The notes: generated by a model not told the origin, from the letters alone. Counted from the stretch's first letter, positions 43,076 through 50,267 are shown. The stretch: 64,000 nt of DNA from a virus (IMGVR_UViG_3300032038_000005:1-64000), one strand, 5' to 3'. Numbers and translations: made by a program.

Positions 43076-43107
43076 ATAGTGGGGCATATGCCCCACTATA
43101 TTTTTTT
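43076..43107 (+). terminator. GGGGC-ATAT-GCCCC intrinsic terminator
   Basis: ATAGTGGGGC-ATAT-GCCCCACTAT followed by T7. Confidence 0.8.
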
Positions 43108-43123
43108 GTTTGGAGATGATGTT

Positions 43124-46054
43124 ATGGCAATGATAGAAGAAAAGACAAACAATCCCATGTCGGAATATCTGTTGAAATTACAATTGATTGTATCCAATAC
43201 CGAATTTATGAACAAAGAAGAATCCGACAAATATGAGACAATGGAAACTCGTATGAATGGTGAAGCATATGTAAATGCGATATTGAAAAAAGATGAATTC
43301 GATTCATATGATTGGTCAGATGTTGCATTAAAGCGCGCATTTAATGAATTACATTATCCAGATGACTTAATTCGGAAATACATTTTTCATCCAGAATATA
43401 TCCCAACAAACGTGAAAAATGCATTGACGGAGAAAGCACGAGCTGTTCGTATTGAAACATACAAAGAGCAAAACAAATACCACATAAACTTGACGGGGAA
43501 ACCATTAGAGGGAGTAGATCCCGATATTCCAATTCCCGATGATTTTTTTGCAATCTATGCAAAAGAAGGTAGTATCCATAAAGATCAATTGGTTCATACT
43601 TTGCCCGCAAAATACATGGAACTCTTTATGAATTCAAAATACTATAAAGAGATGCTACAGCAATATCCACATGTGGAATATTTGAGACATATGGGAACAT
43701 ACTCCATTCCCATTGAAATCTCTCGTCGTGCACGTGATGGGGATATTCTATTAATTAATGAATCTAAGCTACATACGCATCATGAGACATTTGGAAATGT
43801 ATCTGTTTCTCCGGAAATTGTTCATGAATTCACATCGGTTTATAAGAAGACACAACGTTATATCTACGGGACATTGCGAGGTGATTTCTCTTACATCTAT
43901 CCGAATTATAATTCCTTGATTCGATACTTGTCAATCTATATGACAATTGGACAATGTATGAATCAATTCATGCACAAATCTACCAAGTTGATTTACATGA
44001 ATAACCAAATTGCGAATGATTATTTTTCATTATATGGATTACCATCTGTCTTGATGGAGATGAATTCATTAACAAAATTCTTGAAAAAATTTCGGTTACT
44101 GTTAATGGACAAAGGAACAAATACTGTGTATCGAGTGAAAGACTTGATTGGTTATGAATATACGGATATCTACACATTGGTCATGGTAAAACAACAGGTG
44201 TTTGAGAATGGATATCCCATTTATTACAAAGATCCAGAGACTGGAAAATCGGTACCAAAACAGAATATCGTGTTTCGAAGAATGGGGACAGCTGATGACA
44301 ACGCTTCTTATTTCCAATTTAAGAATGAGACAAAGTCTTATACCGTAGAAGAAATTACATCAGGAGATCCTCGATGGTGGAATACACCAGAAGTAGAACG
44401 AATGATCAATGATATGAATTATACCTTATCCAATTCAAAGTATATTCAATTATCCACCATGATGAGTATGGATGATATTTGGTGGCAGACTTGCATTCTG
44501 TTACGTGGTTTATTAGACCATAAGAATGAAACGAAGTATACAGAAATTGAGATTTCACAGTCCGTCAATGGAACATCCACCATCAGCGTCTTTGATGCTG
44601 TTCTATTGCTAATCATTATGATGACTTGGAGCCATACGGATTTCAAGAACAATCATTTTGATGGAAACTTACATATTCCGAATGGAATGTTTAACAATGT
44701 CGCAACTTGTGTTGACATGTTATTCAATGGATTGGAAGCAGATGGTACTCCGAAGGAATTAAAACCCGGATTACCGTACAAAGTCGCCTCATTCAATTTC
44801 AATATCAAGAATGAATCGATCAAGAAATACAATGCCTTATCGACATATGCATATCTTGTTCCTGACATATTCATGCCAATGTTGGATACAATCTTAGAGC
44901 GTGAGTCTGCAAATATTGGAGAAGTCCTCATGCATGACGTTAAATTGTTATATGACTATTTGGGAACGAAATTAAGAACAGCATCAACCATTCATGAATT
45001 CCGTCAAGTTACAGATGCTTACAATTGGCTATTCTTGGTTGATCCCTTACGTGACTGGTCGGATGACACACAACAGAATGTGGAAACATTACTCATGCAA
45101 TCTTATGAGTTGAAATCCTATGAGTGGTATGCATTCAAGCATCTATTCCTTGGAAATGAATCATCCAATGCATCTATTCCATTCTTCTATAATGATGCGA
45201 CATCACCAACACAAATTCCCGTATATCGACTTTTAAATGAGAATGTATTGCAAGTGGATCCCGCATTCTCCAATCCAGACTACATGAATCAATTCATTAC
45301 TACTGTTGGAAAATGGAAATCCGAATTGATTGAACGATCTGATCTGTCAAATATGATCAAGATGCATTATCAATCCATCATCCAAGATAAAGTCTTATTG
45401 GATGTCTCCAATTCACAATATGGACCAAAATCATTTGAAGCATTGCTATTCCGAAACAATCCTACATTATATCGTGGATTACAACAGATGAAAGCTGACG
45501 GAGATCAACTGTTGATTCTGATGCGGTCGATCATCCGTGCTTTGGAATCGTATGCCAATCATCCACTCCCCGCATTGGAGTTTGAAGCAACGGGAAAAGA
45601 TCAGTATATCAATATCTTGAAAGAAGTCATCACTTACTTTAAATCATACATGGTAGAATTTACTAAGAGTGAGTTTCGATATCTCATGGGTGGGTTATTT
45701 GATCACGGTGGAAATTCGAATATGCTATTATTGTTTGATGAGATCAATCATATCACATTACGCATTTTACCTCGAGATGCATTACATTTGTATGATGTGT
45801 CATGTGCAAAAGCGCGAGTCATTGTCAAAGAGGATCTCTCGAAAATGTTATATGATGAAGCACTATTCCAAATCAAAACGACATACAAAAAATTGAAATC
45901 CTCACCATATGAATTGTGGTTTGATAATGGAGAGTGGATTGATCAACAACCGTTTGATGACTTAACGGATGATTCGGTAATCATTGCAAAATTAACCAAT
46001 GACAATTCGGGGACATACAAAATCATCATCAACAAAGAAAATGTGTTAAATTAA
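43124..46054 (+). CDS. Virion structural protein, probable baseplate wedge subunit (976 aa)
   Basis: YKEQNKY..LTGKP and LLMDKGT motifs resemble jumbo-phage wedge proteins; AT-rich codon usage. Confidence 0.55.
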   Translation: MAMIEEKTNNPMSEYLLKLQLIVSNTEFMNKEESDKYETMETRMNGEAYVNAILKKDEFDSYDWSDVALKRAFNELHYPDDLIRKYIFHPEYIPTNVKNALTEKARAVRIETYKEQNKYHINLTGKPLEGVDPDIPIPDDFFAIYAKEGSIHKDQLVHTLPAKYMELFMNSKYYKEMLQQYPHVEYLRHMGTYSIPIEISRRARDGDILLINESKLHTHHETFGNVSVSPEIVHEFTSVYKKTQRYIYGTLRGDFSYIYPNYNSLIRYLSIYMTIGQCMNQFMHKSTKLIYMNNQIANDYFSLYGLPSVLMEMNSLTKFLKKFRLLLMDKGTNTVYRVKDLIGYEYTDIYTLVMVKQQVFENGYPIYYKDPETGKSVPKQNIVFRRMGTADDNASYFQFKNETKSYTVEEITSGDPRWWNTPEVERMINDMNYTLSNSKYIQLSTMMSMDDIWWQTCILLRGLLDHKNETKYTEIEISQSVNGTSTISVFDAVLLLIIMMTWSHTDFKNNHFDGNLHIPNGMFNNVATCVDMLFNGLEADGTPKELKPGLPYKVASFNFNIKNESIKKYNALSTYAYLVPDIFMPMLDTILERESANIGEVLMHDVKLLYDYLGTKLRTASTIHEFRQVTDAYNWLFLVDPLRDWSDDTQQNVETLLMQSYELKSYEWYAFKHLFLGNESSNASIPFFYNDATSPTQIPVYRLLNENVLQVDPAFSNPDYMNQFITTVGKWKSELIERSDLSNMIKMHYQSIIQDKVLLDVSNSQYGPKSFEALLFRNNPTLYRGLQQMKADGDQLLILMRSIIRALESYANHPLPALEFEATGKDQYINILKEVITYFKSYMVEFTKSEFRYLMGGLFDHGGNSNMLLLFDEINHITLRILPRDALHLYDVSCAKARVIVKEDLSKMLYDEALFQIKTTYKKLKSSPYELWFDNGEWIDQQPFDDLTDDSVIIAKLTNDNSGTYKIIINKENVLN

Positions 46055-46065
46055 GAATATGATGA

Positions 46066-46087
46066 TCCGGGGGCATATGCCCCCGGA
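46066..46087. terminator. Terminator hairpin between convergent units
   Basis: TCCGGGGGC-ATAT-GCCCCCGGA. Confidence 0.7.
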
Positions 46088-46094
46088 ATCAAAT

Positions 46095-46268
46095 TCATTT
46101 TGTAATATCAATTGTGTGGACAATATGAGAATACTGTCCTGGTTGGATACTATGAGAGATTAAGAACATCTGTTCCATTTTCAGTGTCGCCATAATTTCT
46201 TGTAACATCAATACGAACACATCTCTCATTCCTGCATCAATATACGCGTCCAGCTCATCGACCAAACA
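46095..46268 (-). pseudogene. Orphaned second copy of the sbcC 3' end (57 codons plus stop; no SD/start of its own)
   Basis: Translates to CLVDELDAYIDAGMRDVFVLMLQEIMATLKMEQMFLISHSIQPGQYSHIVHTIDITK*, with Walker B, D-loop and H-loop. It aligns without gaps to the last 57 aa of SbcC, 24/57 identical by hand count. Confidence 0.88.
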
Positions 46269-47727
46269 TTCAGAAATATAAAGATGTAATATCTTTCCAA
46301 ACAGCTTTATTTCTTATTTTATTTACGTCATAATATTTTATTTGATCATATCCCTCATCTTTTAATATATTTAATACAATCGATGTTTTCATATTATTTT
46401 CAATTAAAAGTTTACATATATGATGTACATCTTCTTCCGATATCTTTCTATTTAAATTTTTGAATTCAAATGGCTCAAATTTATCAGTAATATCTTTATA
46501 TGTATGCTTATTCTTTATATTTTTAATGTCCCCATATGAAACGTCATGAATGTCATATATGTTTTTTAATGTATTTAACACCGTCTTTGGGTTACCCTCT
46601 GTTTCTGGAGAACAAAGCAGTTTCCATATTAATTCAACCAATTCAGACGAAAATCTCTGATGTAATTTAGGGAATTTTGCATCAGTAAGTTGTTCTGTTA
46701 TACTCGCATATGCATCTTTTCTCTTTATCGCATTAACATGTCCAATGTTTATATAATGATATCCCATTGAGTGTAAGATCTTAAGGGTCTTCATCATACT
46801 ACCAGATGTCTTTTCAGATTGTAATAAATTCCATATGAGTTTTACATCATCTTTACTCAAAATCGTTTTATTAAGTTCTGTCATTCTGGCATGCTTCAAA
46901 TTATCACTACAGGAACACCATTCCAAATTTTTCCAATAATTATTTATTTTACAACCATCAATATGATTCACTTGTAGACTTTCGTAATCGTCAATGGGAT
47001 TTAAGAATTCAAAAGCGACTAATCTGTGAACGCTAACGGTATAATGTGATCCATTAATACAAATACAACGTTTTGAATATCCATTTGCATCAATATAATT
47101 CGACATTAATTGATTACTGTGTGTGCTATATACATTTCCAAAATTTGATATTCGATAATCCTCAGTCTTATATTTCGGATACGATATTAATTTCCATTCC
47201 TCGACGTCTTCTTCCCATCTGAGATTATCAACATGATTGTTTCTGTTATCTCCGTCTATGTGAACAACTTTAACACGTTTTCCGACTAATTCTTCTGGAA
47301 CCGGAATAAATGTCATAGCGAGTAAGTCATCAATTGGGAATAATTTCATTTTAGGAATAGGTGGACCATTAGATGTGTCCACCTTTAACAGAAACATTGC
47401 AAAATCATACCCATTTGTAGAATGATAAGATGCCTCGTACGGAGTGAGCGTTTCATCTGTCAATGCTCTGATTCTTCCCAGTGTTGATAATTCAAAACCA
47501 TGCTGAATTTCTTCATGGATTAAAGCTTTCCAAATTTCTCTCATAAATGAACCTCAACTTTCAATCTTTAATTGGTAAACACAATTATCATATTGATCTC
47601 CTTCAATATGATGTGATACCACGAAACACTGTTCAATTTTCATAGTATTCATTACATTTTGTAACATCATGACGTATAAATTAGACTGTTCCATATCGAG
47701 ATATCCATCGCACTCATCTACTAAAAA
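46269..47727 (-). mobile_element. HNH cassette carrying a replacement sbcC 3' end
   Basis: Bounded by two colinear copies of the sbcC C-terminus; the junction falls just before Walker B. Confidence 0.75.
46270..47544 (-). CDS. Free-standing HNH homing endonuclease (tandem NUMOD4-HNH modules plus 3 C-terminal repeats)
   Basis: Intact VHRLVA...VNHIDGCKINN...NLEW module. The first module has IDDLLA in place of VHRLVA. The gene is markedly AT-rich. Confidence 0.88.
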   Translation of the reverse strand: MREIWKALIHEEIQHGFELSTLGRIRALTDETLTPYEASYHSTNGYDFAMFLLKVDTSNGPPIPKMKLFPIDDLLAMTFIPVPEELVGKRVKVVHIDGDNRNNHVDNLRWEEDVEEWKLISYPKYKTEDYRISNFGNVYSTHSNQLMSNYIDANGYSKRCICINGSHYTVSVHRLVAFEFLNPIDDYESLQVNHIDGCKINNYWKNLEWCSCSDNLKHARMTELNKTILSKDDVKLIWNLLQSEKTSGSMMKTLKILHSMGYHYINIGHVNAIKRKDAYASITEQLTDAKFPKLHQRFSSELVELIWKLLCSPETEGNPKTVLNTLKNIYDIHDVSYGDIKNIKNKHTYKDITDKFEPFEFKNLNRKISEEDVHHICKLLIENNMKTSIVLNILKDEGYDQIKYYDVNKIRNKAVWKDITSLYF

Positions 47728-50082
47728 TACATTGTAGTGTGTTAATGACGAAGCCAACGACAATGACAGTGCCAATGATAATAACGTACTCTCAGACTGA
47801 GAACCTGTACGAATGTCTTCAGATTTGTTGGTTCCACAACGGAATGGAAGTGTAAACGTGGTTTCATCAATGGTGGGTTTCAACAATTCAATTTCACCAT
47901 CGTACATCACATCCAACAATCTATTTGCCATGCTTAATGCTTCGGAGATTTTGTCACGAATGGCAATGACGGGTTTTCCCTTGGTGGATGAGGTTGCTTC
48001 GGAGATAATCTTATAACGTTCATCCATGGTCAGATGTTTCTCAATCTCGTCAACGGTTCTGACATATTGTTTATCCGCATTCTCCAGTGTTTCCAACTGT
48101 TTTGCAACAATCTGTACATGAGACTGGATTTGGACATACTGCTCATGGAGTTGACCATATTCCAATTCTGCATTTGACAATTGGGTTTGTTGACGATTGA
48201 GTTTATCATATCGAACTTGCACATCTCCAATGTCAATGTTCTTGATGGATGATAATAGTACCTTCTTTCTGTCAATTTCAGATAATGCTTGTTTGTATTC
48301 GTTTACCAATCTTTCACAATCGGAAATCTGTTGCTGTAATTCCGCAATCTGTTTCTCCAATACTTCAATGGGAACATCACCATTTGTTGTGTCATTCTGC
48401 ATCAGATATTCAATATCTTTAATACGTGCTTCCACATCACTCAGTTGTTTGATGAGTTGGTTATAGTGTTCTTTGTTAACGGCAATCTCCATCCATTTCT
48501 TGATGAAGTCTTCATCGATACCTGAATGACCGTTTTTCAATCGGATTAACACACTCTTTTCACACATATCATTTTGCAGTTCTACCGGAATCTCGATCCG
48601 AAGTAAACGACAAATGGTCTGATAATTCTTCCATGCATGTTCGATGTTCTCCAAATCATACATGGTGAACTTTCCTCTGGATACAGATTCATATGAATCA
48701 AAGTATTGATGCAGGCGTTCAAACGTATTCCGATATAAGCAATTGGGATAACGACAATCCTGTTCTGATACCAAATCTCCACCAACAGAACTCAACATAT
48801 GACGAAGTCGAGAGATAGCACTCTTCTCTTTTTCAGAGTCTAATAACACACTACTTTCTTGCATCAGAAATGCATTGACATCAATTCCCTTTAATAGCAT
48901 ATCACAGAACAATTCCAGATGTTCTTTACTCAAACACAATGTGATTTCTTTACATGTGTCATTGACAGATTTGGCAATAGACAACATACTGGAGAAGACA
49001 GCAGATGAAGCTTGTACATCCAAATCTCCAATCTGTAATTGAGCAATCTCATGTTCCAATCGCTCTTTCATCTGTACCATGTTCTGATAATCCCCAATGA
49101 TTCTTTGACGAGACATCATGTTTGTTTGGAGATGATTCTTTTTCTCATATACGGCATCTAAGTCTTTCATGAGTAACATTCGCTGGCTACTTACTTTTCC
49201 CATCTCATCTGTCAATCGCAACTGTTCTTCCATCAAACTCTCATACAGATTCATGTCATACTGTCCCAATTCCGCAACGACATTTTTGTATGTTACCAGC
49301 TTATTTTGCAACTCCATCAGTTCATTTCCTAAATTCAGTTGCCGTAATGACGTAATCATTCCTGTTAATTGGTCAAGCCGTGTTTTCATCTGTTGCATGG
49401 ATTCTGTCAATGACACATGTTGTACACGAGTTTGTTCCAGTGTCGTTCTCAATGTTTCATATGAGCCATAGCTCTGCAGCAAGAATTCCTTTGTTCTGGT
49501 TAATGACGTAATCAGCTTGCTGGTGTAACGATAATCTTCCGTGGCCAATTTGTGAATCTTGTCGTAGATATCGATCCCCATTGCTTTGTTCATTAATGTC
49601 TTACGCTGTGTTGCGTTCATATTGGCAAACGATGTCAACTGTGTTCCATTGATAATAAATTGGAATACATATCGATTTAAACCAAACACCTTTTCCACAA
49701 CAGCATTGAATGTATTCACACCACCGTTTGCATTTAACTCCACACCGTCTTTCATGATACTGGATACGACGGTATGGCCATTCTTGTTCGGGTTATAGGT
49801 GTGGGTGATATTGTATACTTCTCCATTTACTTCGTAAACAATATTCTTAATCCCGATTTCACCTTTGAGAATCTGAGGCATGTCATTCCGTTCATCCCCA
49901 TTCAGATTCACCGAAGAGAACGGATGTAACTTCTGTAACAGTACAGTTTTCCCACAACGATTTCTGCCATAAATCTGAATGATGGGTTTGTCGATTCCGT
50001 CGAAATGGAATTCCACTTCATGCTTCCCCATTGCCGCATACACGTCAGCAAAGTTCACCAATTTAATATATACGATTTTCAT
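47554..50082 (-). CDS. sbcC: SbcC/Rad50-like SMC-family ATPase
   Basis: Walker A GRNRCGKT, long coiled coils, CxxxxC hook-like centre, signature-like SQSE, Walker B FLVDE and H-loop VSH. Confidence 0.88.
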   Translation of the reverse strand: MKIVYIKLVNFADVYAAMGKHEVEFHFDGIDKPIIQIYGRNRCGKTVLLQKLHPFSSVNLNGDERNDMPQILKGEIGIKNIVYEVNGEVYNITHTYNPNKNGHTVVSSIMKDGVELNANGGVNTFNAVVEKVFGLNRYVFQFIINGTQLTSFANMNATQRKTLMNKAMGIDIYDKIHKLATEDYRYTSKLITSLTRTKEFLLQSYGSYETLRTTLEQTRVQHVSLTESMQQMKTRLDQLTGMITSLRQLNLGNELMELQNKLVTYKNVVAELGQYDMNLYESLMEEQLRLTDEMGKVSSQRMLLMKDLDAVYEKKNHLQTNMMSRQRIIGDYQNMVQMKERLEHEIAQLQIGDLDVQASSAVFSSMLSIAKSVNDTCKEITLCLSKEHLELFCDMLLKGIDVNAFLMQESSVLLDSEKEKSAISRLRHMLSSVGGDLVSEQDCRYPNCLYRNTFERLHQYFDSYESVSRGKFTMYDLENIEHAWKNYQTICRLLRIEIPVELQNDMCEKSVLIRLKNGHSGIDEDFIKKWMEIAVNKEHYNQLIKQLSDVEARIKDIEYLMQNDTTNGDVPIEVLEKQIAELQQQISDCERLVNEYKQALSEIDRKKVLLSSIKNIDIGDVQVRYDKLNRQQTQLSNAELEYGQLHEQYVQIQSHVQIVAKQLETLENADKQYVRTVDEIEKHLTMDERYKIISEATSSTKGKPVIAIRDKISEALSMANRLLDVMYDGEIELLKPTIDETTFTLPFRCGTNKSEDIRTGSQSESTLLSLALSLSLASSLTHYNVFLVDECDGYLDMEQSNLYVMMLQNVMNTMKIEQCFVVSHHIEGDQYDNCVYQLKIES

Positions 50083-50267
50083 ATGCAAAACCTCCATTTT
50101 TTTATTTTAAGACATATATACTATTTTCCTGATAACACCCTAATGATGTATATTTAAAGATAAAAAATATATTTTAGATATACATAATATTCACATGAGA
50201 CAAGCAGGTATCACCCTGTTGTCATATATCAAATCTATATCTCTATATAAGAAAGGAAAGATGCTCA

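Follow-up and report, generated by a model that had tools for sequence, protein, structure and literature searches.

The locus considered here raises the question of why a phage gene for an SbcC/Rad50-like ATPase should be accompanied by two versions of its own 3'-end, with the gene of an HNH endonuclease lying between them, and which of the two versions is the native one. It is located on virus contig IMGVR_UViG_3300032038_000005, that is, a 202-kb genome whose positions 1-64000 constitute the window (the entire stretch of 64,000 nucleotides analyzed), with its features on the minus strand unless stated otherwise. The IMG/VR contig derives from a jumbo phage that is uncultured and encodes a tubulin, and the clade to which this phage belongs is large and known mostly from cattle-gut and similar metagenomes. 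An initial annotation of the DNA had proposed that the HNH gene inserted just before Walker B of sbcC and brought along a divergent 3'-end; inspection of the locus confirmed both gene ends and their positions.

The sbcC-like open reading frame extends from 50097 to 47554 and comprises 842 or 847 codons, depending on whether translation starts at 50082 or at 50097; the Met of MKIVYIK at 50082 is the likely start, and is the start in relatives as well as in database copy P0004. Its native body (47728..50097), which spans the N-terminus through the signature motif QSESTLLSL, is continued by an attached end of 57 codons plus stop (47554..47727) that reads ...YNV FLVDECDGYLD...VVSHH...KIES and contains Walker B (LVDE), the D-loop and the H-loop (SHH). 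A short spacer with a GAGG Shine-Dalgarno sequence overlapping the sbcC stop (47545..47555, read directly off the DNA; 9 nt between stop and ATG, with GAGG 7 nt ahead of the ATG) leads to the free-standing HNH homing endonuclease gene (46270..47544; 424 aa). One base past the HNH TGA begins the second version of the sbcC 3'-end, here called the orphan (46095..46268; likewise 57 codons plus stop), whose stop-free frame reads CLVDELDAYID...LISHS...DITK. The two ends align in register and ungapped, with 24/57 residues identical (24/54 in BLASTP; E 1e-17). As the initial annotation had noted, the orphan runs into the operon terminator, a GC-rich hairpin between convergent genes (46067..46086; dG -26.5 kcal/mol, z -5.3), beyond which lies a convergent gene of 991 aa on the plus strand (43079..46054) without a PHROG match.

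The product of the target gene matches PHROG 77 'SbcC-like' (E 9e-38) and aligns in tblastn with the SbcC ATPase of the Bacillus phages AR9/PBS1 at 25% identity over 98% of the length. It presents, in this order, Walker A, a coiled-coil middle, the signature motif, Walker B, the D-loop and the H-loop, and the family alignment shows no variation in the motifs GRNRCGKT, SQSE, LVDE and SH. Pfam SMC_N scored only 25.8 bits (cut-off 40), and searches of PDB sequences with the single sequence and with a profile returned coiled-coil noise and no direct match.

The intervening gene is intact and the sole HNH_3 gene of the genome. Its product exhibits the Pfam domains HNH_3 (34.9 bits, cut-off 24.8; residues 172-215) and NUMOD4 (28.7 bits, cut-off 23.4), and matches both the SPO1 homing endonuclease I-HmuI (PDB 1U3E; E 1.3e-10) and PHROG 59 (E 2e-45). 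It is built from a degenerate N-terminal HNH-like module, NUMOD4 with the catalytic HNH_3, and three C-terminal repeats of ~65 aa, which diverge faster among homologs than the N-terminal part. Higher-depth metagenome contigs of two sequencing runs (X1 and X3, introduced below) link 46413 and 46813 by 9 letters of other sequence, which suggests that related HNH genes exist with other numbers of these repeats. Having its own translation signals, the gene stands outside any intron or intein. A group I intron or an intein carrying the endonuclease gene was considered and rejected: Rfam yielded no intron match at the locus (E<=1), and stop codons part all three frames. The insertion thus occurred without intron or intein, as first proposed.

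This HNH gene is sporadic at an otherwise conserved locus, being absent from ten related loci (L003-L008, L017, L019, L020 and L026) and from one X3 contig. IMG/VR contained no relatives of it and metagenome contigs yielded two, both distant (32-34%); the best database homologs are 38-46% identical and reside in other contexts, with flanks devoid of duplications. A second instance of the cassette at sbcC was encountered in none of the sampled relatives. In one relative that is of the clade B type defined below (L016, 3687-5066), an HNH homolog (P0005, 38% identical) is located ~1.2 kb upstream of sbcC, counted from the start of the latter, in divergent orientation; its presence there indicates that paralogous endonuclease genes also settle on the other side of sbcC.

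In order to decide which end is native, about 120 full-length SbcC homologs were retrieved, all of which are single-ended and lack an HNH gene at the site. The ten closest (P0125-P0134; body 59-80% identical) are referred to as clade A, and seven distant ones (P0143, P0145, P0147, P0149, P0163, P0177 and P0192) as clade B. Joining 47728 to 46268, i.e., deleting 46269-47727 as the initial annotation had suggested, yields a continuous gene that aligns gap-free to all relatives, and the position of this junction places the insertion just before Walker B. Cassette-free relatives have ends that match the orphan (81-95%) and not the attached type (39-47%): clade A ends share 44-53/56 residues with the orphan and 22-26/55 with the attached end, and clade B ends share 30-32/55 residues with the attached end. 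The SbcC of the phage resembles clade A more than clade B in all 30-column windows until the junction, where the relation is reversed. In a tree computed from the 58 columns of the end region, the attached end falls with clade B (support 89/98) and the orphan among clade A; placing the attached end with clade A is rejected by the AU test (dlnL 28.4, p 0.013), and placing the orphan there is not (p 0.39). The orphan agrees with clade A at each of the 37 columns that do not vary within this clade, and the attached end at 20 of them; the latter nonetheless preserves the catalytic residues common to the family, with 10 of 12 family-wide conserved residues retained and conservative changes at the remaining two. 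In the closest relative (L019), sbcC is separated by 28 nt from the same convergent gene, so that the orphan occupies the native position before hairpin and convergent gene, counterparts of which (994-998 aa) follow sbcC in L019 and L017. Hence, the orphan is the displaced native end of sbcC, and the attached end is foreign. The prediction of the initial annotation that sbcC in cassette-free relatives should end like the orphan is thereby borne out.

The site between sbcC and the convergent gene is itself variable, since only ~28 nt are found there in clade A compared with three small ORFs (226, 55 and 92 aa) in the clade B locus L017 (7688-9149). Among further relatives, P0135-P0142 have mosaic ends in which a clade-B-like DECDGYLD patch after Walker B is succeeded by a clade-A-like remainder, and these mosaics suggest repeated short conversion tracts at the Walker B site across the SbcC family. 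Three other proteins (P0246, P0248 and P0253, from L021, L022 and L023) exhibit an SbcC C-terminal end behind unrelated sequence, one of them with the Walker B DE changed to DA and one fused to a UvrD_C-like motif at a common YxNVYLID stretch. They could be further relics or assembly chimeras, and were set aside as evidence: their contigs measure 654-1789 nt and may comprise chimeras or contig-end errors.

The base composition of the attached end is foreign as well. The GC content amounts to 29.8% for the attached end and 30.7% for the HNH gene (GC3 28% and 24.8%, respectively), compared with 38.9% for the body, 37.4% for the orphan and 38.9% for the genome, and the 1443 nt of attached end plus HNH gene represent the lowest-GC 1.4-kb window of the 202-kb genome. 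Around 47700, GC declines from 39% to 30%, and around 46265 it is back up, which means that the foreign tract starts, within resolution, where the orphan starts in the alignment. Its right boundary is the HNH stop; the left one can be placed no more precisely than to about 0-60 nt, since conservation of the flank extends to both clades. The attached end and the HNH gene share a foreign origin as one unit, and the footprint is that of one insertion of both at a break just before Walker B. By phylogeny as well as composition, SbcC of this phage is chimeric, as had been claimed.

These data bear directly on the idea that the sbcC 3'-end was duplicated locally in tandem, that one copy diverged fast, and that an unrelated HNH gene was inserted between the copies. 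In-register, ungapped copies are what such a duplication would leave behind; however, the attached copy belongs with a distant clade, its origin within clade A is rejected, its GC content fits the HNH gene and not the genome, and dS between the two ends exceeds 1 while the orphan exhibits no decay. We thus regard a tandem duplication as very improbable. When the entire 202-kb genome was compared with itself in six frames, no further pair of gene ends of this sort came to light. Outside the window, at G000:C1 146017-151014, we observed three tandem full-length paralogs (~530-560 aa, 32-42% mutually identical) whose ends carry short DNA repeats that are nearly identical.

Several further searches concerned the source of the foreign end and the surroundings of the locus. 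For the donor of the attached end, a word-indexed search recovered the window's own protein only, an exhaustive search of representatives had a best match of 59%, and six attached-end peptides had no match in JGI metagenome contigs. Neither megablast of the locus nor tblastn of the orphan gave a match among 50,697 phage records. The 16-nt core of the hairpin, GGGGGCATATGCCCCC, occurs four times in the genome (G000:C1 20235, 46069, 106931 and 175515) and is apparently a reused terminator motif; a scan of viral contigs for the hairpin pattern gave no match, and a promoter scan showed fewer sigma-70-like sites than shuffled sequences.

Since the genome is a metagenome-assembled record, and strain variants of the locus coexist in cattle-gut samples, one may ask whether the sbcC ends of two strains, along with an HNH gene from elsewhere, were stitched together during assembly. 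At the DNA level the two ends are identical at 104/174 nt, and their longest shared run is 11 nt, so that k-mer assemblers have nothing to mis-join. We also compared the locus with Logan contigs of four runs. In X1, the probable source run, unitigs at 100% identity cross both junctions; X2, from another study (2025 bioreactor), spans the junction of attached end and HNH gene with one difference; and the same SbcC protein is encoded on a 259.8-kb contig of another assembly. The junction of HNH gene and orphan is supported in X1 only. Taken together, an assembly artefact appears exceedingly unlikely.

A third study (X3, 2019 cattle gut) provides a natural variant of the locus in the form of a single Logan contig of 1360 nt (depth ~5), which corresponds to window positions 48634-47559 at ~97% identity over 1.08 kb of sbcC. 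It contains the attached end with one listed difference and an sbcC end reading ...KIEK, and then resumes at 46099 into the terminator: both HNH gene and orphan are absent, and exactly 1459 nt, that is, one repeat period, are omitted in register. For other X3 contigs of comparable depth, identity amounts to 91% in the more upstream part of sbcC and to 86-88% in the convergent gene; such a gradient resembles that of a conversion tract. If the X3 contigs represent one phage, this phage is a different strain having a near-identical tract centered on the attached end without HNH gene or orphan; nuclease-free alleles with the foreign end would then circulate, and the chimeric SbcC would function without the orphan, making the latter dispensable. 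Another X3 joint ('record 20'), in which an HNH-like gene appears behind the hairpin, was discarded: the hairpin match has a depth-estimated length of ~19 nt, and the core occurs at four places in the genome.

The X3 allele likely descends from an invaded allele, and its origin is compatible with loss of HNH gene and orphan, with homeologous conversion lacking the endonuclease gene, or with an older state. By one route, HNH gene plus orphan would have been deleted from an invaded allele. By another, the right-hand end of a break would have paired homeologously with the attached copy and conversion would have stopped at the last codon; this route could explain the in-register boundary, because conversion would end where coding homology ends. 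A contig joining 47728 to 46268, which would represent the restored native gene, was found in none of the four runs, whose contigs drop rare variants.

The initial annotation had read the intactness of the orphan in two ways, as the mark of a recent event or as that of an alternative usable C-terminus. The first reading is favored: the absence of decay in the 37 clade-invariant residues points to a recent event. The second requires that the orphan be used by splicing, recoding, re-initiation or trans-complementation, and it draws on the fact that the orphan is fully intact with Walker B, D-loop and H-loop kept. However, the absence of an Rfam intron argues against splicing, and the orphan possesses neither ATG nor Shine-Dalgarno sequence: its only in-frame start is a TTG without Shine-Dalgarno sequence, and the ATG overlapping the HNH stop is out of frame and ends after 4 codons. 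Moreover, the ~97% identical X3 relative does without the orphan, and a neutral frame of 57 codons is likely to stay open over modest divergence (for dN/dS of the orphan versus relatives, dS is saturated). A used C-terminus is thus hardly to be expected, and the orphan is best regarded as an untranslated relic.

Based on the evidence collected, we consider it probable that the locus harbors an end-replacing homing element of a phage, composed of an I-HmuI-like HNH gene and a divergent version of the last 57 codons of its target sbcC. In a mixed infection, the nuclease would cut or nick a native sbcC within or close to the codons that immediately precede Walker B (YNV|CLVDELD), and the break would be repaired from the element-bearing genome. 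The left end would recombine within the conserved sbcC body, while the right end would either pair with the old sbcC end behind the HNH gene or, in the founding event, have been joined there illegitimately. The product would be a chimeric but complete sbcC, the HNH gene, and then the untranslated native relic before the original terminator. The attached end, which differs from the orphan at 11 of the first 27 nt after the junction, is presumably resistant to cleavage, and the orphan probably provides the element with its downstream homology arm; we deduce the target site and this resistance solely from where the insertion lies.

The founding event itself would have been an illegitimate joining of the HNH 3'-end to the cut sbcC end, for which phage T4 offers a documented precedent in the one-sided repair of breaks by illegitimate joining at microhomology (Parker et al. 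1999, as cited in the review PMC2988022). This precedent also lends weight to the view that the locus is a one-off repair scar, in which the orphan represents an unresected right break end joined illegitimately behind an HNH gene that had once followed the sbcC of a donor, the founder event having occurred in this same lineage, and plays no role in later mobility. Just 1 nt separates the HNH stop from the orphan, the sequence possibly shared at this point amounts to no more than ~4 nt, and the cassette at sbcC was seen once only. Against this, every such element requires an illegitimate founding, which is why the junction of HNH gene and orphan cannot separate a founder from a descendant. In addition, the orphan is nearer to the end of P0129 (53/56; 84% nt) than to that of P0125/L019, whose body is closest (46/56; 76-77% nt), which gives a weak hint that the orphan may have travelled with the cassette or may have been exchanged separately. 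We consider a one-off scar unlikely, albeit far less so than duplication, artefact or a used C-terminus, and favor the homing element.

It is then tempting to speculate further that resistant end, HNH gene and stranded arm constitute a true mobile unit, that this class is widespread in jumbo phages and drives a chimeric, patchwork evolution of their core DNA-metabolism genes, and that resistant alleles may spread nuclease-free by homeologous conversion, giving rise to the X3 allele. In the present SbcC family, the Walker B region would then be hit repeatedly, as the mosaics of ECDGYLD and E[LI]DAYID patches in P0135-P0142 suggest. We put this forward tentatively, with somewhat less than even confidence.

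What the locus offers in any case is a clean natural series for a homing element entering an essential phage gene without intron or intein: many relatives carry naive alleles, the window carries the invaded one, and one contig carries a nuclease-free allele with the foreign end. It indicates that selfish nucleases can turn core repair genes of phages into chimeras joined at a catalytic motif, a point of relevance wherever such genes serve as phylogenetic markers. It likewise provides a testable pair of nuclease and target, namely the reconstructed versus the chimeric junction.

Among phage systems, T4 mobA and the bypass cassette of gene 60 (work attributed to Bonocora et al., 2011) reportedly represent a case in which the endonuclease gene is accompanied on its travels by extra sequence that alters the target site while the target gene stays functional. 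The protection is said to reside there in a 50-nt untranslated insert that the ribosome skips, with no relic copy. In the sbcC cassette, by contrast, a substitute coding end takes the place of an untranslated insert. More generally, the T4-type intronless homing by free-standing endonucleases such as SegF, SegG, MobE and others (reviewed in PMC2988022) shares with our locus (i) a free-standing endonuclease gene next to an essential DNA-metabolism gene, with the neighbour gene being cut and flanking markers co-converted (as would be the case at sbcC), and (ii) the coexistence of relatives with and without the endonuclease gene (PMC2988022). However, T4-type endonuclease genes are intergenic, or split a gene into two working pieces, as do mobE in nrdA of Aeh1, mobA in gene 39/60 and seg in gene 43 (PMC2988022), and a replacement gene end with a stranded duplicate is not among the arrangements described in that review. 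Nor did our literature search find a published phage case of such end replacement. The strategy is nevertheless better documented than the initial annotation had supposed: in addition to the mORFs of fungal mitochondria (PMC3630166), the WHO elements of yeast operate in just this manner (PMC7282813).

The closer parallels are found in fungi, as had been surmised from fungal mitochondria. Mitochondrial mORFs create gene hybrids, for example, in atp6, atp9, cox2 and nad3 of Glomus (Beaudet et al. 2013, PMC3630166) and in atp6 of Allomyces macrogynus (Paquin et al. 1994, as cited in PMC3630166). They exhibit the same order of foreign C-terminus, endonuclease ORF and native C*-terminus; here, too, it is the native end that falls with relatives, whereas the inserted one stands apart; and the two ends share about 60% of their nucleotides (63.5% for Glomus atp6, PMC3630166; 60% in the phage). 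In contrast, mORFs encode LAGLIDADG or GIY-YIG proteins, are often in frame with the host gene and inhabit organelle genomes, whereas the phage HNH gene is translated separately in a virus genome.

The design of the phage locus is likewise seen at FBA1 of Torulaspora/Lachancea yeasts, in the WHO elements (Coughlan et al. 2020, eLife, PMC7282813). The WHO endonuclease cuts a sensitive FBA1 allele, and repair installs a resistant 3'-end together with the WHO gene (PMC7282813). In both systems, an endonuclease gene directly follows a full-length target with a replaced 3'-end (resistant in WHO), the former 3'-end is stranded downstream (where the WHO fragment acts as a recombination arm), and the phylogenies of the 5'- and 3'-parts of the target disagree; at WHO loci, fragments as well as endonuclease genes may later decay or be deleted (PMC7282813). 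The differences lie in the proteins and in the setting: WHO proteins are intein-like LAGLIDADG/zinc-finger proteins of a nuclear eukaryotic genome with meiosis, whereas the phage element is a single one, outside any cluster, with an I-HmuI-like HNH protein in a jumbo phage. Moreover, cleavage has been shown for WHO6, while the phage element is known from its sequence alone. The phage cassette thus has the end-replacing layout of chimeric full-length target, endonuclease gene and displaced native end, and encodes an HNH_3 enzyme in place of a LAGLIDADG, GIY-YIG or intein-like one, which is why it works like mORF and WHO elements and belongs to neither protein lineage. This phage case is well supported and instructive, yet introduces no new principle; it extends a mechanism of yeast and fungal mitochondria to bacterial viruses and to the HNH family.
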